This document shows positions 2,260 to 26,154 of a stretch of DNA of 45,321 nt, one piece after another. The DNA lies in sequence record OR352959.1; one strand, 5' to 3'. The first letter of the stretch is position 1; each line of letters begins with the position of its first letter. The position numbers were made by a program, and so were the translations under genes. The DNA is from Escherichia phage AV129. The notes under the pieces were generated by a model. The model worked only from the letters and a program-made list of their open reading frames with translations, was not told the origin of the DNA and did no database searches.

Positions 2260-2622
2260 ATGGCTAAAGCACCACTCTTCACACTCGACCCTAAGCCAAC
2301 CTTTAAGCTGCCGATTGAGATCCCGCGCCCTGGTGAGAACGAGCCGGGCAAGATGACTTTCACCGTCCGCCACCGCCCGATCGACGAATTTTCGCAAACC
2401 ATGCAGGACACCGAAAGAAAGCTATCGGAATATGACGACAATGACCCGGACGGCTTTAACGTTATGGTCGAGGCCATCATGCACGTCGCGGAAGGCTGGA
2501 ATCTGCCAGACGAATTTAACGCGGAGAACGTCCGCCGCCTGGTGGTCAACTATCCACGCGCGTTCGGTGTGTTCCACACGTCGTACTATCTCGAACTGAT
2601 GGGGTTGCGTGAAAAAAACTAA
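2260..2622 (+). CDS. tail assembly chaperone (lambda G-like)
   Basis: Small ORF between major tail protein and tape measure; ATG at 2260 preceded by GGAGA (the track's 2245 start is a TTG); ends at a slippery site. Confidence 0.7.
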   Translation: MAKAPLFTLDPKPTFKLPIEIPRPGENEPGKMTFTVRHRPIDEFSQTMQDTERKLSEYDDNDPDGFNVMVEAIMHVAEGWNLPDEFNAENVRRLVVNYPRAFGVFHTSYYLELMGLREKN

Positions 2623-2936
2623 TTGAGGCGGCGCGACGCTTTTATGGCCCGCCGCCACCCTCTGAAGATTTAGCCGCAAGTTTATGGGGCGCGGCACCCG
2701 AAGATGTTTGTCCGCCTGTTGCGCTATGGCCCGATAACGCGAAGATAGTCGCAGTCTTCACAGATTGCGCCACGCAATGGCGCACCGGATTTGGTGGCGC
2801 ATACGGCATCGACTACGGCGTGCTGGAGTGGTTATTTAAGATGCACGGTATCGAAAACGAGCAGCGCGCGTTTAAAGATATCAAGCTAATGGAACGCATC
2901 GCGCTTGATGAAATGGCGCAGCAGAACCCCGCATAA
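2260..2936 (+). CDS. tail assembly chaperone frameshift fusion (lambda GT-like), needs -1 ribosomal frameshift
   Basis: The -1 frame is open from the slippery heptamer at 2613-2619 to TAA at 2934-2936 with no ATG start of its own, and its translation is protein-like (GIDYGVLEWLFKMHGIENEQRAF). Confidence 0.6.
2613..2619 (+). promoter_or_regulatory. -1 programmed frameshift slippery heptamer A_AAA_AAC
   Basis: Zero-frame codons GAA AAA AAC TAA; canonical X_XXY_YYZ heptamer immediately before the chaperone stop codon. Confidence 0.6.
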
Positions 2937-2938
2937 TG

Positions 2939-3256
2939 AAGCGGGACAAGCGGGACGTCCCGTTTTGTCCCGCCCCTGTGAAACCGCATACCTACTCACT
3001 TTCATTGCATAATCTAAAAGCGGGACAAGCGGGATGTCCCGTTTTGTCCCGCCCCACAAAAGTGCATACGTATTCAGTTTTATTGCATAAAACAAACGGG
3101 ACAGAAAGCGGGACAAACAAGGGGCGGGACAAAACGGGACAGCACCCCGTCCCCGCCAGTGCTGCCGCGGTTTTTAGCCGATCGGGACAGGCGGGACAAT
3201 CCCCAGTCTTTCAGACTAGACGGGGGGTCAGTGGCCCCCATCGTCTGAGACTGAAT
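2939..3256. repeat. CGGGACA iteron cluster with head-to-head palindromes and a long imperfect hairpin (copy 1 of a duplicated element)
   Basis: At least 12 GGGACA boxes; two near-identical palindromes GCGGGACAAGCGGGAC/GTCCCGTTTTGTCCCGC at 2941-2973 and 3021-3053; 3084-3256 is near-identical to 31893-32060. Confidence 0.7.
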
Positions 3257-3321
3257 AAGGTTTGTTTTGAAATCGCTGATACAATATCCATCGGCAACTG
3301 CATAAAAAAGGGGACTGCATA

Positions 3322-5964
3322 ATGGCAGATCAGGCAGCAGGCATCACGCTAAAGGCTGATGTTGCACAAATCAGAACGGCAAATACTGTGCTGGACTCCT
3401 TCGCACAGAAATCCGAGAACACAGAAAACAAGGTTAAGAAATTAAACGACACCCTCGGCAAGTCCAAAAAGGTGACGAGTGACGCCGCGGGCGGAATGGA
3501 AAAGCTGGCAAACGAATCGCAGCGCGCCGCCGATGGCATGACGAAACAGGAGAGACTCGCCAACAGGTTAGGGATGTCGACTAAAAACCTGGGCTTTGCC
3601 TCGCGTAACGCCGCATTCCAGCTACAGGATATTGCGGTAACGCTTGAGATGGGGATGCCGGTTCACCGCGTCATGCTTCAGCAGTTACCGCAGCTAACTG
3701 GGGCGTTCGGTGGACTGGGTAACACGCTGCGTTATGTTGCGGGCTTCCTCGGCCCAGTAGGGATCGGCCTCGCCGCCGTAACGGCAACGTTAGGCGTGGG
3801 CGTGGCAATTACGTCCCGCGCAGAGAACCAGGTCGCCGCGCTTAACAAGACGCTGGCGCTGTCAGGTAACATTTCCGGCCTCACTGCAAACCAGATCCTG
3901 GTGTTATCCGAGAACGCCGAGCGCATGGGCGGATCATTCCGCAAGACGCGTGACACAATCCAGGCGCTGGCGGCGGCGGGTGTGAAAGCGGGTGGTGACT
4001 TCGGCGCATTGGCTAAGGTAGTTAATGACTTTGCGAAGGTGTCCAGCCAGCCGATCGAGGATGTGGTCGCGGCGGTGGCGAAGCTGTCAACCGACCCGGT
4101 AGGCGGCTTACGGGCATTGGCGGATAAGTATCACGTCGTAAACGAAGCGCAGATCCAGCAGGTACAGTCGCTTGTGGATATGGGTCGCGAGACAGACGCG
4201 GTGGCGCTGGCTAACAAAACCGCCGCGGCGTCGTTCACCACTATGACCAACGATATTAAGTCCAACATGGGTACGCTTGAGCGTTCGATGAACGTCGTCA
4301 CATCGGCAGCTAAATCTATGTGGGATGCCATCCTGGATGTTGGGCGCGCGCAGTCATCGAATGAGTCCGAGATGAAAGCGCGTGAGTCATTGCAGCGGCT
4401 GACCACGGCTTACTATGCCGAGATGAAAGCGGTAAACGCTGCCGGTGGGGTGATGACCGAAGCGCAGAAAGCGCGTATTAACATGCTTTACAGCGAACTT
4501 GTCGCACAGGAGAAGGTGGTGGCGTCGCTCACCCTGCGCAACCGTGCTGAGCGGGAAAACGCCAGCGCCGCGGACGAAGCAGCAAAGGCGAACGAAGAGG
4601 CCAACCGTACCGCCCGCGACCGCGCTGCGTTTGAGAAGGAGTACGCAACAAACGCGAAGAGGCGAGCTGACGAGATCGCCCGCCTCAATTTGCTGAATAA
4701 GCGTGGCGTGATTGACGAGAAAGAACTTGCCGAGGCGGTGAAGCAGGTAAACGAGCGTTACAAAGACCCCGCCCCGAAGAAGGCCGCCGCTGTTCGAGTC
4801 GATGCCGGGCTGAAAATGCTGGAGGTCGCACGGAGCGAACTGGCACAGCTTCGAGAATCAGGCAAGCAGATCGAGGCCAACTCTTCGACGCAGACCAGAA
4901 CGCAACGCGCGCAAGCGGCCCTTAACAAGCTGATTGCCGACAACGAGCAGTTAATCGCTGCGAGCAAAGAAAGGGCGCTGACGGCAGCAGAGAAGCAGCA
5001 ATTAGTCGAGTTCGGGCGCGTGAAGGAAGTCCGCGAGCAGATCGTCGAAGAAGCCAAATTGCTGGACGCGAAAGAGAAGCAGGTCAAGGCGCACGCGCAG
5101 ATCGACGCCTTCGTTAAGAACCAGAACGCCGAGCTAAAAGCCACCGCGGCGGGCTATGCGCTTTCCACTCGCGAAGCGGCAAACCTGCGTGAAGAATTGC
5201 AGCTAATTGACCGCCTTAAGCGGGTGGGCGCTAGCGATACCGATATTGATCTGGCGGTGTCTAAGCTGCGCGAAGTGCAGGAAGCACAGACCGGTGCTAA
5301 CGCCTCGCTATGGGATGGCTTCAGCCGCGGGCTTAAGGATAGCGTGGATGAAATGGGTAACGGCTATACGCAGATGACGTCACTCACAAAATTCACGTTC
5401 GGCGCTATGCAGGACACGATGAACAAGTTTTTCGAGACTGGCAAGCTGAACGCAAAGGATATGGTTAAATCCATCCTTAGCGAATTAATCAAGCTGGCTA
5501 CATCGCAGGCGTTCAAGTCCATCGTTAGCGCTTTCGGCGGTGACGGCGGCAAAAACGGATTGTTCGGCGCTATCTTCTCTGGCCTCACTAAGAATGCGGA
5601 CGGCGGAGCGTACGCAGGAGGCAATCTCGCGGCCTATTCGGGGAAAGTGGTAAGCCAGCCTACCTTTTTCAGTTATGGCGTCCAGGCGTTCGCTAAGGGC
5701 GCAGGATTGATGGGTGAGGCCGGACCCGAAGCCATCATGCCACTGAAGCGCGGGCCGGACGGGAAACTGGGTGTTGCCGCGTCTGGCGCAGGCGGTGGTA
5801 TGGTCGTGACGACTAACGTTTACACGGGGTCCGGTAAAACAGATACCAGTGTCAGCGGGCCGGACCCCCGTACCGCGCAGGCGTTCGGCAAGCAAATCAC
5901 CGAAGCGGTGAAGGCCGAGATCGTGAAAGCGACGAAACCGGGTGGTGTACTTTACAAACGATGA
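3322..5964 (+). CDS. tail tape measure protein
   Basis: 880-aa ORF after the chaperone pair; long helical Ala/Gln/Lys-rich middle and Gly-rich C-terminal region typical of tape measure proteins. Confidence 0.85.
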   Translation: MADQAAGITLKADVAQIRTANTVLDSFAQKSENTENKVKKLNDTLGKSKKVTSDAAGGMEKLANESQRAADGMTKQERLANRLGMSTKNLGFASRNAAFQLQDIAVTLEMGMPVHRVMLQQLPQLTGAFGGLGNTLRYVAGFLGPVGIGLAAVTATLGVGVAITSRAENQVAALNKTLALSGNISGLTANQILVLSENAERMGGSFRKTRDTIQALAAAGVKAGGDFGALAKVVNDFAKVSSQPIEDVVAAVAKLSTDPVGGLRALADKYHVVNEAQIQQVQSLVDMGRETDAVALANKTAAASFTTMTNDIKSNMGTLERSMNVVTSAAKSMWDAILDVGRAQSSNESEMKARESLQRLTTAYYAEMKAVNAAGGVMTEAQKARINMLYSELVAQEKVVASLTLRNRAERENASAADEAAKANEEANRTARDRAAFEKEYATNAKRRADEIARLNLLNKRGVIDEKELAEAVKQVNERYKDPAPKKAAAVRVDAGLKMLEVARSELAQLRESGKQIEANSSTQTRTQRAQAALNKLIADNEQLIAASKERALTAAEKQQLVEFGRVKEVREQIVEEAKLLDAKEKQVKAHAQIDAFVKNQNAELKATAAGYALSTREAANLREELQLIDRLKRVGASDTDIDLAVSKLREVQEAQTGANASLWDGFSRGLKDSVDEMGNGYTQMTSLTKFTFGAMQDTMNKFFETGKLNAKDMVKSILSELIKLATSQAFKSIVSAFGGDGGKNGLFGAIFSGLTKNADGGAYAGGNLAAYSGKVVSQPTFFSYGVQAFAKGAGLMGEAGPEAIMPLKRGPDGKLGVAASGAGGGMVVTTNVYTGSGKTDTSVSGPDPRTAQAFGKQITEAVKAEIVKATKPGGVLYKR

Positions 5965-5971
5965 TAAAATG

Positions 5972-6000
5972 GCCCTCACATCCATCGTGGGGGCTTTTTT
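5972..6000 (+). terminator. putative intrinsic terminator
   Basis: Imperfect hairpin GCCCTCAC/GTGGGGGC followed by T6 right after the tape measure stop. Confidence 0.45.
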
Positions 6001-6600
6001 ATGTCACAAGGTACAATCACATTAACTAAGGGGAGTAAGACCGTTACGGGCGCGGGAACGGCGTTCCTTAGCGAGATCGGGAAGGTACGCGTATTCGCCC
6101 GCATCGACGGCAACGACTACACCGGCAAAATTGCAGCATTCAACTCGAACACGGTCATTACACTGAAAGATAACTGGGCCGGCCCGACAAAAGCCGGTGC
6201 GGCATATGAGCTAATCGAAGCGCACGACCCGCGATCAAACGAATGGCCCTATTACTGGCACATGCAATTGCAGGGCGGCGGCGACGTGCAGTTAGCTTTC
6301 CGATCCGAGGAATTGCAATTCGGTAATGGTTACGGTCAGAACATCGCGGACGGCCCGAACGCCGAGACGAAACAATTTCCCGTGCAATTCATCGGACTGA
6401 CTACTGACAAGTGGTGCGACCCTAAACTGGTTTACAACTTTCTTCGCGGTCACTTCGTCAAACCGTTTGTTGTCACCGCGCCGGATGGCGAAACAGGTTT
6501 ATTCGTGGTCGAGCGTTCGAGCTTGTCGTACACTGACAACGGACACAACACGGCAACGGTGTCCGCCACCCTTAAGACTGCCATTGGATTCGTAAGATGA
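6001..6600 (+). CDS. minor tail protein (gpM-like / distal tail), putative
   Basis: First ORF after the tape measure in a lambda-like order. Confidence 0.45.
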   Translation: MSQGTITLTKGSKTVTGAGTAFLSEIGKVRVFARIDGNDYTGKIAAFNSNTVITLKDNWAGPTKAGAAYELIEAHDPRSNEWPYYWHMQLQGGGDVQLAFRSEELQFGNGYGQNIADGPNAETKQFPVQFIGLTTDKWCDPKLVYNFLRGHFVKPFVVTAPDGETGLFVVERSSLSYTDNGHNTATVSATLKTAIGFVR

Positions 6601-7385
6601 ATAAACTATATCGCGAGGCGACGCGCTTTGACCCGTCGGGACGCGTTCGCCTGATCCACATTGACGCGCAGGACGTGGAGCCTGGCGACGGCGCGATCGG
6701 CGCGGGCCATCACTATTTTCACTATTGCTTTATTCCGCACACTGCCGAGGATATTGCCGCCGCAGGTGGTGACGAGGACAAGCTAAAACCTAAATCCATC
6801 TTCTTCGGCGGGCAGGAGTTCGAATTTTGGCCCTTCGATTTATCCGGTCTTAACTTCTCCACATCAACGGCAGCAGAACCGCAGCTAACCATCGTCGATA
6901 TTGGCGGAATCATCACCCGGTTGTCGCTGAATCACGACCAGCTACTGGGCGCGAAGGTTGAGATCATTGATACGTTCGCGAAGTTCCTTGATAACGGGTC
7001 GGATCCAGACCCGACGCAAAAACGTGTCCAGGAGTATTACATCGACTCACAGGTCGGTCGCAATCCTGGCAAGCAGATCACCTTCGCATTATCCTCACCC
7101 GCGGATATGGAGGGGCAAGTAGTTCCCCGCCGCCAAATAATGAATATGTGCGAATGGGCGCTCAATGGGAAGTACGCCAGCGGGGACGGCTGCACGTGGA
7201 ACCTTGCGAAGCCTGGCATCAAATACTACGACGAGCGCGGTAATGAAGTCATTGCGATGAACATGGACCGATGCGGCGGCTGTTTGTCCGACTGTTATCT
7301 TCGATTTGGGCAAGGGCTTGCGGACCCTAAAGCGGCGGTGCTGGACTTCGGAGGCTTTCCGGGGTCCAGATTAATTAAGGGGTAG
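6597..7385 (+). CDS. minor tail protein L-like
   Basis: Position between the M-like and K-like genes; C-terminal Cys cluster CGGCLSDC as in lambda gpL-type proteins. Confidence 0.55.
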   Translation: MNKLYREATRFDPSGRVRLIHIDAQDVEPGDGAIGAGHHYFHYCFIPHTAEDIAAAGGDEDKLKPKSIFFGGQEFEFWPFDLSGLNFSTSTAAEPQLTIVDIGGIITRLSLNHDQLLGAKVEIIDTFAKFLDNGSDPDPTQKRVQEYYIDSQVGRNPGKQITFALSSPADMEGQVVPRRQIMNMCEWALNGKYASGDGCTWNLAKPGIKYYDERGNEVIAMNMDRCGGCLSDCYLRFGQGLADPKAAVLDFGGFPGSRLIKG

Positions 7386-18860: not shown

Positions 18861-19552
18861 TTTAAATTTTCCTCGTTAACCGCTATCGCGAAGCCGCGCG
18901 GAGTGAGTGAGCGGATTAATTTTGTACGAGCGGATTTACCACCGAGGCGACTATACTGTTTCGAGTATCCTTTTTCAACGAAAACAGGTTTCTTCTCTGG
19001 CATACGGAAGCCGTTGCCGGTCCATAAGCAAGTCAGCTTCGGATATGAATCGCGGGCGTTGATGTATTCCGGGAAGAGCGGGTGTACGTCATCCTCCGGC
19101 AGATACCCCCCATACTCCCACGGGTCGAACGAGTGATCCGGCTTGCGCCACTGGGTGGAAAGCACACTGCGCGGATTCTAAATCATATATGGCACTTCGA
19201 AGAAGTCACCCAGGTAAGCGGCGATCTTCGCGGTGCGCACCGCCTTAAGCTGAAAGGCTGGGTCTTTAGCCCGCTTGCGCGGGAAAGCTGGCGCGCCGCT
19301 CACTGCCAGATCCGTGCACGGAGGAAACGCATAGATGATATCGGGCGTACCGAAATCACCATTCATCGCGCGGTCAACGAAGTCCAGATCGATAAACTCA
19401 TTGCGATACCGGATTCCGCGACCATAAATCCGGTAGTCAAGGTAAGACCCGTGATCGGCTTCGGAGTAGTTGAAGCAATAACACTTATGCCCCATCTCGG
19501 CAGCACGCTCAATCATCAAACCGCTGCCGTCAAACAATGACCAGATTATCAT
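18857..19552 (-). pseudogene. ORF interrupted by one in-frame amber codon; possible methyltransferase-like protein
   Basis: ORFs 19178..19552 and 18857..19165 are in the same frame, separated by TAG at 19178-19180 plus 4 sense codons; N-terminal part has LFDGSG and FPPC motifs. Confidence 0.45.
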
Positions 19553-21063
19553 TTGCGCGCCTTTTTAGCTTTCATGTATTCCATCAAGTCGTCCTGTATA
19601 TCTCGCTTACTGTCTCGACGCTCAGCGACCAATTCGTCCAGTGTCCCGCGAGCCTGGATAATGTAGACGAATACCGGTCGTGGGTGTCCGGCCTGCATCT
19701 GGCGAACCGGCCCGATACGTTCAACGATCTGCGAAAAGTGCTCAAAGTTCCAGGTGTCTGAGAAGATTGCCAGGTGATGACCGCCGTCCTGCAAGTTAAG
19801 GCCGTGGCCCGCCGATGCCGGGTGTGCAAACATGATGGGGATCTCGCCCCTGTTCCATGCTTCCATATCCTTATTGCCCTGCTTTCCTTTACCCAACGCA
19901 ACGCCGTGCGGAAATTTCTTCTTAAGACGAGCCAGGTCATGTTTATACTGATACGCAACAAGCAACGGCGCCCCGTTCAGCTCCTCAACGATACTTTCCA
20001 GCGCGTCCAGCTTCGCGTCGTGAATCTTCACCCACTCGTCGGTCCGTTCGCCGTCTTCGTCCACCTTATACACCGCGCCGGAAGCAAGCTGAAGGCACTT
20101 AATTGTCTTCGATGCCGCGTTCGCCGCTTCCACTGTTCCGCTTTCCAGTTCGGCAAATAGCTCGCTTTCAAACTGGTCGTAAATCTTGCGGGCTTTCTTC
20201 GGCAGATCCACAACAACCGGCGTATATATTGGCTTGTCACATCCGAAGTATTCAGCCGCGTCAACGGTTAGTGATACGTCAGACAGGCGTTGTTGTATTT
20301 CTTTCTCGGAGTTCTTTAGCGGGGCGTGCTGCATCGTGAAGCTGCCAGGCTTAACAGGCTTGCTAATAAACCAGCGATCGGTAAATGCCTTATAGCTACT
20401 GCCGAGGCGTTCGCCACCGTCGACAAACCACGTCTGACCCCATAAGTCTTTTAGCCCGTTTGGCGCTGGTGTGCCGGTAAGGTTAATCCAGCGCTTGACG
20501 TGTTTATGTGCAATCGCTGCCAGTGCGCGGGCGCGCTTGCTCCCCTGCTTGCTACGATAGCCTTTCAGCTTAGTCGATTCATCGGCAACAACGACCGTAA
20601 AGGGCCACGCATCGCCGTAATAGTCAACCAACCACTCAACAACATCATAGTTAACACAAACCACGTTAGCGTCGCTCTCAAGCGCGGCAATACGGTCCTT
20701 CTCAGGTCCAGTGCCGTCTACGACCAGCAGGGATGAGAATCGCCATTTCTCCTGCTCCGGTGGCCAGGTGCCGGACGCAACGCGCAGCGGGGCCAGCACC
20801 AGTACGCGGTCCTCATGATGGGACAGGACGCCAGTCTGGAACATTTTATTCAGCGCCCACATTGTCGCGCCGGTTTTACCGGATCCCATTGTCGCCCATA
20901 TATTACATCGCTTATGCTTGAGGATGAACGCGGTTATCAACTTCTGATATTCGCGGCGTCGGAATCTTGCCATGTCTTTATTCCGCCTTTTTCCAGACTT
21001 CTGTCTCACTGTTCCAGTTCCTTTTTGTGGCGTCGTAGTTGGTGGCGTGTCCGATGTGGACAC
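19549..21063 (-). CDS. SF2 helicase (DEXD/H-type)
   Basis: Walker A ATMGSGKTGAT and DExx box VVADESTKL; true start may be the internal Met at about 20973. Confidence 0.7.
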   Translation of the reverse strand: MSTSDTPPTTTPQKGTGTVRQKSGKRRNKDMARFRRREYQKLITAFILKHKRCNIWATMGSGKTGATMWALNKMFQTGVLSHHEDRVLVLAPLRVASGTWPPEQEKWRFSSLLVVDGTGPEKDRIAALESDANVVCVNYDVVEWLVDYYGDAWPFTVVVADESTKLKGYRSKQGSKRARALAAIAHKHVKRWINLTGTPAPNGLKDLWGQTWFVDGGERLGSSYKAFTDRWFISKPVKPGSFTMQHAPLKNSEKEIQQRLSDVSLTVDAAEYFGCDKPIYTPVVVDLPKKARKIYDQFESELFAELESGTVEAANAASKTIKCLQLASGAVYKVDEDGERTDEWVKIHDAKLDALESIVEELNGAPLLVAYQYKHDLARLKKKFPHGVALGKGKQGNKDMEAWNRGEIPIMFAHPASAGHGLNLQDGGHHLAIFSDTWNFEHFSQIVERIGPVRQMQAGHPRPVFVYIIQARGTLDELVAERRDSKRDIQDDLMEYMKAKKARK

Positions 21064-21735: not shown

Positions 21736-21968
21736 TTGGTCTGCAACTCCACGTTACGCAGACGAAGGTCTACCGGTATATCCGACCGGCCGGTTAGTGC
21801 CAGCGCCAGGTTTTCAGGCGTGACGAGTGCCGTAATGGTCTTGCCACGTTCCAGTCTAATGACGATTCTAATCTCGTCATTGTCCGTCGCGCCAGCGCGC
21901 ATAATGCTCATTTCTGCTTTCATAATCTTACTTCCTGTACCTGTACATAATGTCGCCTTCGGCGGCAA
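21732..21968 (-). CDS. hypothetical protein
   Basis: Small ORF immediately downstream of the polymerase gene; start uncertain. Confidence 0.3.
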   Translation of the reverse strand: MPPKATLCTGTGSKIMKAEMSIMRAGATDNDEIRIVIRLERGKTITALVTPENLALALTGRSDIPVDLRLRNVELQTK

Positions 21969-24900
21969 GTGGGAAGCCTTTCGCCCAAATAGGCAGGTCG
22001 CACATCAGCGCGCAAAGCTCCTCGGTCGTGTAGTCGTCGGTGTCCGGCACTTCTGTGATCAATTCGTCGTGTACTGACAGGACGATTTCATACCCCGCAG
22101 CTTCAACGCCAGGCATGGACCATGCGAGAATATCGCGACACAACGCCTGTACGATGTTCTCCGTCAGTTTGCCGCCGTAGGTATACTGGAATCCCCACTG
22201 GCGCGTCGTCTGATTCTCGCCCTGATATTTAATGCGTGTGCTGGTGCGCTTCTTGCCGGTGTCTTCGTCAATCTCGGTAGTGACAGACAGCGCGATGCCG
22301 GGGTAGCTCATGATGCGCCCCGACGGCAACTCAATTTTCAACCACCACCCAGCGGCGTTCGGGTCGTCGCGCTCCTCGTCAAAGGTTGGGTCGTGCTTCG
22401 CCTTCGTACGGACAATCTTGAGCGCTTTTCTACCGTCCGGGCGAACGTTCGCGCCAGCCCAGTATGCTTTACCAGGATTGCGGATTGCACACAACACCGC
22501 GTCCTCAAGCTCTGCCCAAAAGGCTACCGTCTTCGGGTGAGCCTCACGCCACATACGTTTGATCGCGTCACAGGTAAGCCATACGTTTTTCGGCAGTAAG
22601 TAGGTTGGGCGCTCGTCCTTCTTGCCGGGCTTCGGCGGGCGCTTCGCTTCGTTAATGCGAGCGTACTCATAACCACGTTTCGCCGCCGCCCAAATGTGAT
22701 CCGGGAACGTGCCTTTCATGACGTCAGCCATAGTGTAAAGGTCGAGGCCCAGGTTTTTAGCGAACTGCAAGAACGCCGCGACGCCGCCACCGTAGCCCAG
22801 ACCAAGCTCGCAGTTATGCGCCACCAGAAAACCAGACTTAGACGCAATAAGGAACCGGTTTCCGTCTTCCACATCAATCAGGTCGTAAACCGGCTCGCAA
22901 TAGGTTAACTTCCCGTTCCAGTTCAGCAATGCGGGTAAGGGCTTCATCGTACTTTCGCTGAAGCTCGGGCACGCTGCGCCGGTTACGGCAGTTTTCCGAA
23001 CGGCTGACAAACCGAAGGTTTCCAGGCTCATAGTTGCCGTCTGTATCGATCCGGTCCATTTCGAAGTCTGGCTTATCCCAGCCGTCCAGCGTTTGAACGT
23101 AGAGAAGAAACGACCTTTTATCTCTCTTCCATTCGTCACATACGGCAATCCCACGACCGCCGTAGTTTTTATACCCTTTAGCGCGGGGGTTTGCCGTTCG
23201 TGATATTGCCGCTGACAGCCGGTTGAGCAGCCGCGTTCTGTGCGCATCGTCTGGCATTGCGTCATCGTAGCAAAAATACTGTTTACGATACCGCTTTGTC
23301 GCTTCAATTGCGCAGAGGTTGCATTGGGATGTTTTACCCCTTCGGACGTTGTCATACCCGACGCGTCCTGGCATCGCTCCGCAATCACATTGGGCCAGCA
23401 GTTGTCTGTGCCCCTGTCGTTTTGGTAATTCGCGCAGGATAACCAGGCGTCCATACCTCTCGCCAGGGCGCGGACCATCGTGCACCTGTCTGAAACGAGT
23501 TGCCTTGCCTCCTTCCATGAATGCGTCAAGATTTTGTGGTCTTCTGTCATCAAGACCCCGTCCACGTCTATCACTGGTTTCCACCCCATAAGGTGCGCGC
23601 CTTTTGTACTCACCCATTTTTCGCCGTTCCATACTTTATCCGTTGATGTTACGGCCATAATATCCTTGAACCCGCCATTGGTCAATACTTGGGTATGGCG
23701 GTGCAAGCAAGCCTTCCCTATCTGGCGTAAATCCTTGCGGTTGGCTTTGATGTAATCCGGGTCAAGGCCAAACATCTTACCGGCAGTTTCACAATAGATA
23801 TCGCGACCGGCCTTAAACACCATTAGCGCGGTTTTCTCGCCTGCGGTCCAGGCAAGTCCACGCCCTTCCACGTTGGAGTAGTCCGCTACGACAAACTTCT
23901 TGCCCTTAGCCGGGATAATGCACCCGCGAACGGTCGAGGCTGTTAGCTTAGATATGTCATACGCCCAGTGCGCGGTCCCGCGTAACAGGGAATTGATGCC
24001 GTTGGTGAGCATGTGCGACCGGACCCAAAAAGCAACGTCGCTCTCGCCTTCGCGGCGCTTAATCTTCCCTTCGTGATCGTCGCTATACTCGCCGCGTGCC
24101 AGGTTTTGAGGCTGGAAGCCTTTACCCGCCCAGCGCAGCGTGCGCTTTGCGCCACCATACTGAAGACACCCACGGCGGCGACCATCTGCGGATAAGCCGT
24201 TAACTAACGGATTGTACTTAGTCGATGCCGTTGATGACGCACCGAGGCGCATTTCGATAAGCGCTTTGCCTTCGTCGGGGAAGTCCGGGTCTTCAAGCAG
24301 GTCGTTAAGTGTGGATTTCTGCGCGTTGTGGATTGTGAACGCAGGCGCGAGGTCGCGCAGCGCTGGCAGGAAGTCATTGCCGGTCAGCTTACCGCCGAAG
24401 CGCTCCCATGCTTCTTCCTTCAATTCTTCCTTATGCGCCTGCACCGCTTTGATCGCGGCGTTCGCCAGGTCAACGTCCACATAGAAGCCGCGGTCATTGA
24501 TCAACTGGTCAATAAGCAGGATTTCGTCTTCCTTCGGCGTGTTACCCCAGTCCGGTATGCGCCAGTAGACTTCCCTCATCGCTATAATATCCAGTGCGGC
24601 ATAGCGCAGGAATTTAGCCCATTCCTCGGGGTGCGTCTCGCGCGTATAGCGACGGATTTTGTAGGTCTTAGGGGTGGGCTTACAGAATCGTTTGATCAGC
24701 GCCTTGCCAGCCTTATCCTTCGCGTGCTCTGCGTCGACGCCCAACACCTGGCACTGCATATCGAGGCTACCCGGCAGCGCGTGTCGAAAGGCCATAATCA
24801 TGGTGTCTTCGATCTGGACTACCGGCAGGTCAATGCCCCACTTCTCGCGAATAACCAGGCGGTCAAACAGGAGGCCGTTAGCCATCACGATTTTTGCTTT

Positions 24901-25116
24901 CTTGCGGGATACCCGGCGGAGCGCCTTGCGCAGTTCACGCGGCATTGTGGGGGACTCGGTGCAATCCCATGTCTGCACGCGGCCCTCGTCGATGGCGTAT
25001 GTGCAAATCATAATCTCGGTAGTTGGGTGTTCCGCGTAGGCGTACGCCCCAACTTTCTTCAGGTCCACCCCGCTAAATGTCTCGGTGTCGAGAAACAGGC
25101 GTTCGAAGTCTTTCAT
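21928..25116 (-). CDS. DNA polymerase, family A with 3'-5' exonuclease domain, intein-containing
   Basis: Exo motif FLDTETFSG, motif A ADYSNVEGR, motif B split as RQIGKA / CELGLGYGGG around a ~299-codon insertion; C-terminal VHDE motif C. Confidence 0.85.
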   Translation of the reverse strand: MKDFERLFLDTETFSGVDLKKVGAYAYAEHPTTEIMICTYAIDEGRVQTWDCTESPTMPRELRKALRRVSRKKAKIVMANGLLFDRLVIREKWGIDLPVVQIEDTMIMAFRHALPGSLDMQCQVLGVDAEHAKDKAGKALIKRFCKPTPKTYKIRRYTRETHPEEWAKFLRYAALDIIAMREVYWRIPDWGNTPKEDEILLIDQLINDRGFYVDVDLANAAIKAVQAHKEELKEEAWERFGGKLTGNDFLPALRDLAPAFTIHNAQKSTLNDLLEDPDFPDEGKALIEMRLGASSTASTKYNPLVNGLSADGRRRGCLQYGGAKRTLRWAGKGFQPQNLARGEYSDDHEGKIKRREGESDVAFWVRSHMLTNGINSLLRGTAHWAYDISKLTASTVRGCIIPAKGKKFVVADYSNVEGRGLAWTAGEKTALMVFKAGRDIYCETAGKMFGLDPDYIKANRKDLRQIGKACLHRHTQVLTNGGFKDIMAVTSTDKVWNGEKWVSTKGAHLMGWKPVIDVDGVLMTEDHKILTHSWKEARQLVSDRCTMVRALARGMDAWLSCANYQNDRGTDNCWPNVIAERCQDASGMTTSEGVKHPNATSAQLKRQSGIVNSIFATMTQCQTMRTERGCSTGCQRQYHERQTPALKGIKTTAVVGLPYVTNGREIKGRFFSTFKRWTAGISQTSKWTGSIQTATMSLETFGLSAVRKTAVTGAACPSFSESTMKPLPALLNWNGKLTYCEPVYDLIDVEDGNRFLIASKSGFLVAHNCELGLGYGGGVAAFLQFAKNLGLDLYTMADVMKGTFPDHIWAAAKRGYEYARINEAKRPPKPGKKDERPTYLLPKNVWLTCDAIKRMWREAHPKTVAFWAELEDAVLCAIRNPGKAYWAGANVRPDGRKALKIVRTKAKHDPTFDEERDDPNAAGWWLKIELPSGRIMSYPGIALSVTTEIDEDTGKKRTSTRIKYQGENQTTRQWGFQYTYGGKLTENIVQALCRDILAWSMPGVEAAGYEIVLSVHDELITEVPDTDDYTTEELCALMCDLPIWAKGFPLAAEGDIMYRYRK
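22813..23709 (-). other. intein inserted in polymerase motif B
   Basis: Insertion starts with Cys (CLHRHTQVL), has block B-like VLMTEDHKILT, ends YDLIDVEDGNRFLIASKSGFLVAHN followed by +1 Cys. Confidence 0.7.
22874..23632 (-). CDS. HNH homing endonuclease, nested in the intein in a different reading frame
   Basis: Zinc-finger-like QCDCGA...SQCNLC, then YKNYGGRGIAVCDEW and DRIDTDGNYEPGNLRFVSRSEN; frame differs from the polymerase frame; likely start near 23518 (MEGGKATRF). Confidence 0.75.
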   Translation of the reverse strand: MERRKMGEYKRRAPYGVETSDRRGRGLDDRRPQNLDAFMEGGKATRFRQVHDGPRPGERYGRLVILRELPKRQGHRQLLAQCDCGAMPGRVGYDNVRRGKTSQCNLCAIEATKRYRKQYFCYDDAMPDDAHRTRLLNRLSAAISRTANPRAKGYKNYGGRGIAVCDEWKRDKRSFLLYVQTLDGWDKPDFEMDRIDTDGNYEPGNLRFVSRSENCRNRRSVPELQRKYDEALTRIAELEREVNLLRAGLRPD

Positions 25117-25341: not shown

Positions 25342-26064
25342 TTAACGGCGGCGACGTTTGCGTGGCGCTTCGTCTTCGTCGTCGTCCTCATCTTCGTCAT
25401 CGCGAGGCTTACGACGTTTGCGAGGTTTTTCATCTTCCTCATCGTCATCACGACGTTTTGACTTTTTGGACTTACGCGGGCTTTCGTCTTCGTCATCGTT
25501 GCCCAAGTCTTCGTCGGAACATGAAGACCCGCCACCTCCGAAGGCTTCTCCGTCTTCACGGAATCGCAGACCCAGCAAGCCTGCCCCGAGTCCCTTGCCG
25601 TTGGTATTGTTCCACGCCCAAATATCAAGGGACACGTTACAATAACAACCAGAGTAGATCTCCTGGCCTTCAATCTCGTCGCCGTCGATGGTCAGACCCT
25701 GTTCAGTCTGCTTCTCGCCGAGTGACGTTTGAATGATAGGCTGTTTGAACGATTTGGCGTTGATGTACAACATGCCTTCGAATTCTTCGGTTACTTCGTC
25801 GCGCTCGTCGCCGTCGCGAACTGCACATTCCTTAGAATCCTGGGCGTAGTGGCGGTCCATCCACTTATCGGCATTCTTCTCGGATTTCAGCTTGTCGGTG
25901 AGCACTGCGCGCGCTGCCGCTTCCACTTTGTCCACCTGCGGGTCTTCTTTATCCAGAAGAATAACGGCACGGTATGCCGGTTTTTGTCCATCCTGTTTCG
26001 GGGTATCACGTTCCCAGATTTTCAGGAAGCATACGCGCACTTTTTTCAGGTTGACTTTAGCCAT
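25342..26064 (-). CDS. ssDNA-binding protein-like (T7 gp2.5 / DUF2815-like), with mixed-charge repeat tail
   Basis: Start MAKVNLKK with gagga RBS; adjacent to the DUF2800-like exonuclease; C-terminal alternating acidic/basic blocks ending KRRRR. Confidence 0.45.
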   Translation of the reverse strand: MAKVNLKKVRVCFLKIWERDTPKQDGQKPAYRAVILLDKEDPQVDKVEAAARAVLTDKLKSEKNADKWMDRHYAQDSKECAVRDGDERDEVTEEFEGMLYINAKSFKQPIIQTSLGEKQTEQGLTIDGDEIEGQEIYSGCYCNVSLDIWAWNNTNGKGLGAGLLGLRFREDGEAFGGGGSSCSDEDLGNDDEDESPRKSKKSKRRDDDEEDEKPRKRRKPRDDEDEDDDEDEAPRKRRRR

Positions 26065-26154
26065 TTTCCAATTCCTCATTTTCACATGTATCGGGGTTAT
26101 TGGAAGCCACCCCGTTCGGCTTGGTTGCTAATTTACTTGGTTGCGCCTAAGCGG

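Follow-up and report, generated by a model that had tools for sequence, protein, structure and literature searches.

Endonuclease Genes Within Splicing Elements

Homing endonuclease genes occur inside group I introns as "genes within genes", with examples in the introns of phage T4 and in the polymerase-gene introns of T7-like phages. The subject of the present work is an insertion of 897 nucleotides (nt), positions 22813-23709 on the minus strand, in the family A DNA polymerase gene of Escherichia phage AV129 (OR352959.1), a sequence of 45,321 nt that was analyzed as a whole and is hereafter called the window. This insertion is probably a two-part mobile element, comprising a splicing intein and a separately expressed HNH endonuclease gene that is nested within the intein in another reading frame.

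Inteins with a homing endonuclease encoded in a different frame were published in 2025 for actinobacteriophages (10.1101/2025.01.02.630785), the endonuclease being EndoVII-like and located in frame 3, with antisense LAGLIDADG and VSR-like endonucleases reported as well. The distribution of these inteins suggests continuing transfer, and the origin proposed for them is the invasion of an intein by a free-standing gene (10.1101/2025.01.02.630785). The terms promoter, Shine-Dalgarno and start codon are all absent from the text of that preprint. In a mycobacteriophage DNA methylase an HNH insertion, the ShiLan domain, is hidden out of frame (PMC11855218); no ribosome-binding site was detectable there, and leaderless initiation from a GTG codon was proposed (PMC11855218). 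In fractured genes a free-standing homing endonuclease gene separates the halves of a split intein, an arrangement that backs a model in which endonuclease genes invade inteins (Dassa et al. 2009, PMC2677866). An intein in the P45 DNA polymerase of phage APSE-1 has been known since van der Wilk et al. (1999; as cited in PMC549080).

An Intein Interrupts Motif B of the Polymerase

The polymerase precursor is encoded by one open reading frame (ORF) of 1062 codons (21928-25116, minus strand), uninterrupted across the insertion and matched by the Pfam family DNA_pol_A. An earlier reading of the window, made from the sequence only, had placed an insertion of about 299 codons exactly inside motif B, and its coordinates and extein ends agree with those found here. 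The insertion is 299 codons long and lies one residue past the motif B lysine. The N-extein (amino acids 1-469; 23710-25116, minus strand), delimited by alignment with Taq pol I and the polymerase of phage welsh, ends in DLRQIGKA, and the C-extein (21928-22812, minus strand), likewise placed by alignment, opens with the +1 Cys of CELGLGYGGG, the remainder of motif B. Between them the intein extends from Cys1 to His-Asn299 in the polymerase frame (22813-23709, minus strand), as indicated by motifs that are invariant in its family. It begins with CLHRHTQVLT, contains VLMTEDHKILT and ends in GFLVAHN, followed by Cys, so that the canonical termini and the block B-like segment of the sequence-only reading were all recovered.

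Removal of the insertion had been expected to restore motif B, and it does. Deletion of the 299 codons in silico gives a protein of 763 amino acids that aligns without gaps, at 99.1% identity, to the intein-less polymerase of phage welsh. The junction RQIGKA|CELGLGYGGG is the same in both proteins, the site in phage welsh reading RQIGKACELGLGYGGG. Alignment of the spliced protein with the Taq pol I structure crosses the junction, with RKDLRQIGKACELGLGYGG pairing with PLMRRAAKTINFGVLYGM, and K468 of the N-extein falls opposite the Taq pol I motif B lysine, the K of RRAAKTINFGVLYG. The DNA_pol_A match itself grows upon splicing in silico from residues 393-469 to 393-482, and from 49 to 58 bits. 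The window derives from a Dhillonvirus-like coliphage whose polymerase gene is approximately 95% identical to those of Pubbukkers, SO-1, P-GXEC-L2P5, PS2, and EP23. In the other close relatives among the matches listed only 71-72% of the polymerase gene is matched, because the 897 nt are absent there. Most Dhillonviruses among these matches are without the intein and supply the intein-less alleles with which a comparison had been suggested.

The intein can be divided into a Hint-N half with blocks A and B (amino acids 1-74; 23488-23709, minus strand), a linker (about amino acids 75-261; 22927-23487, minus strand) and a Hint-C half with blocks F and G, ending ...VYDLIDVEDGNRFLIASKSGFLVAHN (amino acids 262-299; 22813-22926, minus strand). 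Cys1 of block A is invariant in 31/31 aligned family members, as are, in the aligned family, T55 and H58 of the block B T-x-x-H signature (T55-E-D-H58 in the window) and, in the numbering of the mini-intein formed by Hint-N plus Hint-C, H111-N112 together with the +1 Cys. In a set of 83 metagenomic relatives described below, the C-terminal end reads HN|C in 82 (including one cut by a contig end) and HN|S in one, and all relatives scanned open with Cys-x4-Thr/Ser and have W-D-G-x-x-W and T-P-D-H blocks. A mini-intein profile built from the 31 family members matches best the N fragment of the split intein of the Nanoarchaeum Pol, NEQ068 (E 7.6e-5), followed by the Spl DnaX mini-intein, a VWA intein and PI-MtuI (E 0.05-0.2). 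TIGR01445, "intein N-terminal splicing region", is matched by 19 of the 31 (best E 2.7e-4), Pfam Vint by nine and Hint_2 by three. The insertion is accepted as a class-1 intein, predicted to splice, because of the invariant C1, TxxH and HN+Cys residues together with the matches of the family profiles.

A Nested HNH Gene in the -1 Frame

Wholly within the insertion lies a second ORF on the same strand (22874-23632), with 252 codons from its first ATG to a TGA stop at 22876-22874. It had been reported at these coordinates and in a different phase by the sequence-only reading; the offset of 1484 nt from the polymerase ORF puts it in the +2/-1 frame. The homologous core of the encoded protein starts near 23518, and approximately the first 38 codons of the ORF are an off-frame reading of Hint-N. 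Against the PHROG database the protein matches phrog_374, "HNH endonuclease", at E 1.1e-46, and four further nuclease families at E<=1e-20, of which three are named "HNH endonuclease" and one "restriction endonuclease"; the match to endonuclease VII is weak. Homologues in protein databases number 2193, the nearest 120 or so being mostly about 247 amino acids long and located on contigs of about 1 kilobase (kb). Many of these contigs measure about 0.9-1.1 kb, approximately the size of the intein, and may represent assembly breaks at polymorphisms between intein-plus and intein-less alleles. Free-standing homologues with 29-34% identity are found in Staphylococcus, Bacillus, Ralstonia, Pseudomonas, and Arthrobacter phages.

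Profile searches, which had been proposed as a check on both domains, gave a divided result. Pfam searches with the polymerase, the nested ORF and the intein of the window recognized neither Hint nor HNH, and single-sequence PDB searches with the HNH protein and with the mini-intein returned only noise; the family-level profiles, PHROG and the conserved motifs recovered both. An AlphaFold2 model of the nested protein has a predicted local distance difference test score (pLDDT) of 88.5, and its structural match to HNH nucleases is weak. The HNH motif reads EMDRIDTDGNYEPGNLRFVSRSENCRN, with invariant N167, N176 and N179, and an invariant D155-R156 stands where the general-base His would be expected. 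The nested protein is assigned to the HNH-family (His-Me finger) endonucleases, and a nuclease activity is only inferred because an invariant Arg replaces the general-base His. HNH enzymes without the canonical His reportedly exist, as is said of PacI on the basis of its structure.

Free-standing HNH genes, one of them putative, are also seen next to the polymerase gene. In the Salmonella phage SAP012 (LC553736) an unannotated free-standing HNH homologue with 32% identity (3001-3495 of the retrieved stretch) sits directly after the stop codon of the DNA polymerase I gene and before a VRR-NUC gene, so that this endonuclease family is found beside, and not only inside, polA. SO-1 and P-GXEC-L2P5 contain an extra gene of approximately 600 nt between the polymerase and VRR-NUC genes (4756-5358 of the retrieved stretches), named a putative HNH endonuclease in the SO-1 record and absent from the window (21736-21927) and from Pubbukkers. 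It looks like a second, free-standing mobile endonuclease polymorphism beside the polymerase.

Selection on Two Reading Frames

The frame under selection changes twice along the insertion. Substitutions were compared between the window and Jersey-type copies (82-84% nucleotide identity), and ratios of nonsynonymous to synonymous substitution rates (dN/dS) were calculated by the method of Nei and Gojobori. Over the 219 nt at the start and the 108 nt at the end of the insertion, substitutions cluster at third positions of the polymerase frame, and in the 570 nt between them at third positions of the HNH frame, the counts at HNH codon positions 1/2/3 being 17/5/4 in the first segment, 28/13/64 in the middle and 13/1/1 in the last. 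Over Hint-N (nt 1-219) the polymerase frame has a dN/dS of 0.07-0.09 and the HNH frame one of 1.0-1.3; over the middle (nt 220-789) the corresponding values are 0.93-1.21 and 0.12-0.15, and over Hint-C (nt 790-897) they are 0.04-0.05 and above 4. Both ends are therefore selected as polymerase-frame protein and the middle as HNH-frame protein. Read in the polymerase frame, the middle evolves as though its amino acids were irrelevant, with only stop codons kept out.

The 897 nt contain 25 stop codons in the third frame and none in the polymerase frame, the remaining frame being that of the long nested ORF. Synonymous codons were permuted within the HNH gene such that the protein and its own biased codon usage were kept, and the polymerase frame then remained open in 21/20000 permutations for the window and in 3-10/20000 for Jersey-type copies, with a mean of 4-6 stops. 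Across 74 distinct HNH sequences (GC content 0.40-0.63) host-frame stops are absent from all, compared with a permuted mean of 4.06 and a median probability of an open frame of 0.0013; the third frame of the same sequences averages 14.7 stops. The equivalent frame contains 3-16 stops in each of seven free-standing homologues from other phages. The earlier proposal that so long an open frame is unlikely by chance and implies selection is borne out by the permutations and the free-standing controls. Its description of the polymerase frame over the HNH gene holds in part: the frame is stop-free as described, and its translation looks off-frame only across the middle ~190 codons rather than ~250. 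The frame switch in dN/dS at the Hint/HNH borders, along with stop avoidance, supports the earlier interpretation, in which a homing endonuclease gene, itself free-standing, sits inside an intein and is overprinted on it.

Distribution and Age of the Layout

The same 3189-nt ORF, 897-nt insertion and frames are present in five other intein-bearing Dhillonvirus records. When the HNH protein was used as a tblastn query, about 138 more phage records matched it at 80-90% identity; they come from Jerseyviruses of Salmonella and a Kagunavirus of E. coli, and in the ten that were listed the match always falls under a "DNA polymerase" feature. In four Jersey- or Kaguna-type records that were rechecked, the insertion again measures 299 codons and occupies the identical site; the polymerase frame is open through it, and the HNH gene is read in the -1 frame. 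The IMG/VR database was searched with an alignment of the closest HNH homologues, and 80 of 331 matches, with 42-99% HNH identity, were kept; three loci found by exact look-up bring the metagenomic relatives to 83. In 83/83 the frame at HNH+1 is open over the whole HNH match, within a stop-free stretch of 377-1126 codons (some cut by contig ends), and the third frame is closed over the HNH region. Insertion points within motif B could be placed for 65 loci and lie after GK+1 in 14, GK+2 in three and GK+5 in 48. More distant homologues of the Hint domain are found in APSE-1 and Caulobacter phage GB2A at another polA site (YGGKS|C...HN|CENxxQA) and in Streptococcus phage Javan113 at the motif B site; in all three an HNH homologue (30-34% identical) is read in the other alternative frame (+1). 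Among the relatives examined no in-frame Hint-HNH-Hint arrangement was found. The layout is real, old and widespread.

Annotations of the element vary. The SO-1 record names the nested ORF an HNH endonuclease and the element a "type I self-splicing intron"; the Ent1 record describes an "intein encoding splicing domains" and names no endonuclease; in the RefSeq entry for APSE-1, P46 is given as an HNH endonuclease inside P45; and several records use "intein-containing DNA polymerase precursor". Some metagenomic gene calls begin at a linker Met in the polymerase frame and continue into the C-extein, and gene finders are inconsistent at this locus where contigs break near the intein.

Candidate Expression Signals Embedded in Hint-N

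The Hint-N coding region contains candidate signals for expression of the HNH gene. The probable start is an ATG at 23615-23617 (minus strand), which overlaps the Trp32 codon (AAA-TGG as A-ATG-G), would give a protein of 247 amino acids, and is the only upstream HNH-frame ATG common to the Dhillon and Jersey types. A second candidate ATG (23632-23630, minus strand) overlaps the Trp27 codon of Hint-N. Among 57 distinct inteins Trp32 is preceded by A in 48, where extein codon usage predicts 18.3 (no more than 30 in any of 1000 resamplings), and Trp27 in 42 (9.5 expected, maximum 18), the related sequences being counted as independent; C precedes neither Trp in any of the 57. Between the two Trp codons the W-D/N-G codons form GGGAYGG in most relatives and, in the window, the Shine-Dalgarno-like GGAACGG (23624-23630, minus strand), a putative element read from the sequence that lies 6-7 nt upstream of the ATG at 23617.

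Further upstream a sigma-70-like promoter (23657-23685, minus strand) was found in the window by a consensus scan, with a -35 hexamer TTGACC (23685-23680), a 17-nt spacer and a -10 hexamer TATTAT (23662-23657); taken by itself, this match is at chance level. At the same intein position the promoter template is matched at 9/12 or more in 40/57 inteins, with a mean of 8.67. Synonymous resampling with the protein held fixed gave a mean of 7.02 +/- 0.11 (maximum 7.39) and 7.8 inteins expected at 9 or more (maximum 15). This position scores highest within the first 160 nt, other positions averaging 3.08, and the hexamers are provided by rare codons such as TTG for Leu and ATA for Ile. The promoter and ATG signals lie at synonymous sites, in proteins whose identity has fallen to about 40%. 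The HNH gene would seem to have its own promoter and start and to produce a protein of about 247 amino acids, the first 35 or so residues of which would be unconstrained off-frame Hint-N.

Mobility and the Flanks of the Insertion Site

The intein shows a population pattern of the kind left by homing, being patchy in occurrence, more conserved than its flanks and associated with a flank signature. It is 99% identical among the six Dhillonviruses, the flanking exteins being 92-95% identical, and 83% identical between Dhillon and Jersey types, with 65-70% for the exteins. Six intein-plus alleles, spliced in silico, were compared with six intein-less alleles, all of 2292 nt. Fixed differences, with no allele shared, occur only at -1, +6, +8, and +11 of the insertion point and are all synonymous; in the window (22801-23710, minus strand) these are positions 23710, 22806, 22804, and 22801. 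The intein-plus flank is GCT|TGCGAGCTTGGY in six alleles, and the flank of the six intein-less alleles is GCG|TG(C/T)GA(A/G)TTGGGR, the intein-less site reading GGTAAGGCG|TGCGAATTGGGA. Such a pattern would be expected of homing with short co-conversion tracts, or of target-site changes that travel with the element.

Proposed Mechanism and Alternatives

In the mechanism favored here the element consists of two genes. The first is a class-1 intein in the polymerase frame, with a Hint-N of 74 amino acids, a linker of ~190 and a Hint-C of 38. After translation the Hint halves would excise all 299 residues and join ...RQIGKA to CELGLGY..., rebuilding the O-helix (motif B) that the polymerase requires. 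The second is the HNH gene in the -1 frame, from which a separate protein of ~247 amino acids would be made by use of the promoter embedded in Hint-N (23685-23657), the Shine-Dalgarno-like element (23630-23624) and an ATG at 23617 or 23632. The presumed target of the endonuclease is the motif B site of intein-less polymerase alleles in co-infecting relatives; recombinational repair of the cut would then copy the intein and the endonuclease gene jointly (homing). Selection acts in three modes, namely on polymerase-frame protein at the ends, on HNH-frame protein in the middle, and in the polymerase frame of the middle only against stops and frame-breaking indels, these being selected against because a truncated polymerase would be lethal. 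Splicing, the use of promoter and start, nuclease activity and its target are all predicted from sequence. Use of the specific promoter and start, and active homing, are judged to have somewhat better than even chances. Chances are even that the out-of-frame layout is a stably selected two-gene design with an autonomous HNH unit, as opposed to a transient stage that precedes fusion of intein and endonuclease; the layout persists in phage lineages whose HNH proteins share only 42-55% identity, several polA sites are occupied, and both alternative frames are used.

Several observations weigh against this interpretation. The intein of the window itself has no Pfam or PDB match, and support for the Hint domain is modest and comes from the family level. 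A protein database search with the 299-residue intein gave five matches, too few for a useful alignment, and an AlphaFold2 model of the polymerase-frame intein made from this five-sequence alignment had a pLDDT of 35 and was uninformative. A disorder signal was sought in the composition of the linker, which is rich in T, S, A, and R and has a net charge of +11; this composition is not especially hydrophilic, the hydropathy being equal to that of the Hint parts, and no clear disorder signal emerged. The values obtained for promoter and start by treating related inteins as independent are not true probabilities, and the amino-acid sequence alone already yields 7/12 promoter matches.

The least unlikely rival, itself improbable, is that the intein splices and the nested gene no longer supports homing, having lost catalysis or retained only DNA binding, with mainly vertical descent of the element. 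The D155-R156 pair in place of the usual D/H-His and the weak structural match to HNH nucleases would fit such a loss. The Arg, however, is invariant across the family and so is not a recent lesion, purifying selection in the HNH frame is strong, and the start and promoter signals are conserved; the patchy intein, more conserved than the exteins, and a flank signature linked to the target site also speak for continued homing.

Programmed frameshifting, with a -1 shift near 23490 and a return near 22900, would make the nested ORF a domain of a Hint-HNH-Hint protein. The HNH frame is indeed -1 relative to the polymerase and is open well upstream of the HNH core, but there would then be no reason to keep ~190 polymerase-frame codons free of stops in 83/83 relatives. 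No X XXY YYZ heptamer was seen by eye at the Hint-N/HNH junction, in a search that was not exhaustive, a frameshift-element match in Rfam is noise (13 bits versus a gathering score of 70), and the conserved ATG, Shine-Dalgarno-like element and promoter indicate independent initiation. Frameshifting as the main mode of expression is accordingly very improbable; a minor frameshift product is conceivable.

Slightly less credible still is a tolerated, non-splicing insertion that hides an HNH gene in the manner of ShiLan, such that the polymerase works with the 299 residues retained. Hidden out-of-frame HNH insertions without splicing domains do exist (PMC11855218). Here, however, the insertion splits the O-helix one residue past the motif B lysine, C1, TxxH and HN+Cys are invariant, the ends have a polymerase-frame dN/dS of 0.04-0.09, and profile searches recover inteins.

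The chance that two compensating indels, arising as sequencing errors or recent mutations, disguise an ordinary in-frame HNH intein is close to nil. The frames do switch near the Hint/HNH domain borders, where two indels would create such a picture, and resequencing had been recommended for this reason. The same frames and the 897 nt recur, however, in six independently sequenced Dhillonviruses, the frames recur in Jerseyvirus, Kagunavirus and 83/83 metagenomic relatives down to 42% HNH identity, and no in-frame relative was found, APSE-1, GB2A, and Javan113 using the other alternative frame; nor would an accident keep the polymerase frame free of stops. Compensating indels are excluded by this comparison.

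Equally negligible is a group I intron with an HNH homing endonuclease ORF. It is the label used in the SO-1 annotation, and HNH genes in such introns of phage DNA polymerase genes are well known, as mentioned in PMC3428280. An Rfam search of 22500-24000 gave no group I intron match even at E<=10, its three sub-threshold matches being noise; no relative has a stop in the host frame across the insertion, whose length is always a multiple of three, and the Hint blocks at its two ends are conserved and, in the polymerase frame, under purifying selection. Removal as such an intron had been named as an outcome that would overturn the sequence-only reading, which stands after the Rfam search. A fractured gene, with two host ORFs flanking an endonuclease gene, was rejected outright, the window having a single 1062-codon ORF and the host frame being continuous in 83/83 relatives.

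Neighboring Genes and Related Records

Several observations were made on nearby genes and on the records compared. Upstream of the polymerase, a gene for a Gp2.5-like single-strand DNA-binding protein (25342-26085, minus strand) ends by encoding a long and highly charged tail rich in K, R, D, and E (...DDEDESPRKSKKSKRRDDDEEDEKPRKRRKPRDDEDEDDDEDEAPRKRRRR), and an ORF opposite this tail reads as poly-Ser. The SNF2-type helicase of the window (19549-21063) has 504 amino acids and no LAGLIDADG intein insertion; in the Jerseyviruses 5sent1 (5245-6642) and Ent1 (4852-5927, both in retrieved stretches) the helicase downstream of the polymerase contains an in-frame LAGLIDADG intein. In the JGI metagenome contig Ga0568918_0000077 (2563-5558) polA is split into two ORFs (2563-3711 and 3708-5558) with a 4-nt overlap; the break lies just upstream of motif A, the second ORF opens MKKLVVSDLSNIEGR..., and a motif B intein with a nested HNH gene is present as well. 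MG065648, labeled "Campylobacter phage A144", has a polymerase 94% identical to that of a coliphage Dhillonvirus, which suggests mislabeling or contamination, and PQ843332 (P-GXEC-L2P5) is 88.6 kb long, roughly double the length of a Dhillonvirus genome, suggesting concatenation in the assembly.

Comparison with Known Systems

These results bear on several wider questions. For the origin of mobile inteins, the polA/HNH family offers a large natural data set for the hypothesis that splicing-only inteins became mobile through invasion by free-standing endonuclease genes; the partners here are still separate genes, yet their pairing is old and stable. For overlapping coding, it provides ~190 codons read in two frames, with the protein under selection in one frame and only freedom from stops in the other, and with inner-gene transcription and translation signals apparently hidden in outer-gene codons. 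For intein engineering, the implication is that ~190 residues of arbitrary sequence between its halves need not prevent a Hint domain from splicing. For annotation, the element is carried by much-used phage groups (Jerseyvirus, Dhillonvirus, Kagunavirus, and APSE) and is labeled inconsistently, as an intron, an endonuclease-less intein or nothing. If the two-gene design is indeed stable, separate expression would be needed, for example to uncouple the dose or timing of the nuclease from that of the polymerase, and the element would be the protein-splicing counterpart of the group I intron with its "gene within a gene".

The likeness to such group I intron units lies in the union of a splicing element and an independently expressed endonuclease gene in one mobile unit, in the endonuclease having its own expression signals and in the co-conversion of flanking sequence. 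Group I introns splice at the RNA level, and their host frame is free to close, whereas the protein splicing predicted here requires a host frame that stays open beneath the overprinted endonuclease gene. Fractured genes (PMC2677866) similarly tie a free-standing endonuclease gene to an intein, with the coding end of the gene overlapping the downstream intein half. Their host gene consists of two ORFs and splices in trans, unlike the continuous host ORF read through the endonuclease gene in the window. The ShiLan domain (PMC11855218) shares the HNH gene read in another frame inside an open host ORF and the homing-like pattern. It has no detectable splicing domain and is thought to be kept as a loop, whereas Hint blocks A, B, F, and G are present here and under selection, and the motif B site could hardly tolerate a permanent insertion.

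The closest systems are inteins. APSE-1 P45/P46 has a homologous Hint domain (41% identity over 93% of the mini-intein) and an HNH homologue nested out of frame, but its polA site is different (YGGKS|C...HN|CENICQA), its HNH gene is read in the +1 frame instead of the -1 frame, and the HNH proteins share only 30% identity. With the actinophage inteins of 2025 the locus shares an endonuclease ORF located between the splicing blocks, on the same strand and in another frame, an open intein frame and an endonuclease related to free-standing phage endonucleases. The hosts there are phages of Actinobacteria and the endonuclease is EndoVII-like; here the match to phrog_374 is strong and that to endonuclease VII weak. 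The polA/HNH family further differs in having at least three insertion points in motif B and a distant polA site, in using both alternative frames, and in its conserved promoter, Shine-Dalgarno-like and ATG signals. A search of the literature available without subscription returned no description of this family or of its expression signals. The architecture is not unprecedented, its general type having been first described in 2025. The polA/HNH inteins are a new, much larger and deep family, to which the present analysis adds family-wide stop avoidance, dN/dS that switches between frames, embedded expression signals and a flank signature.

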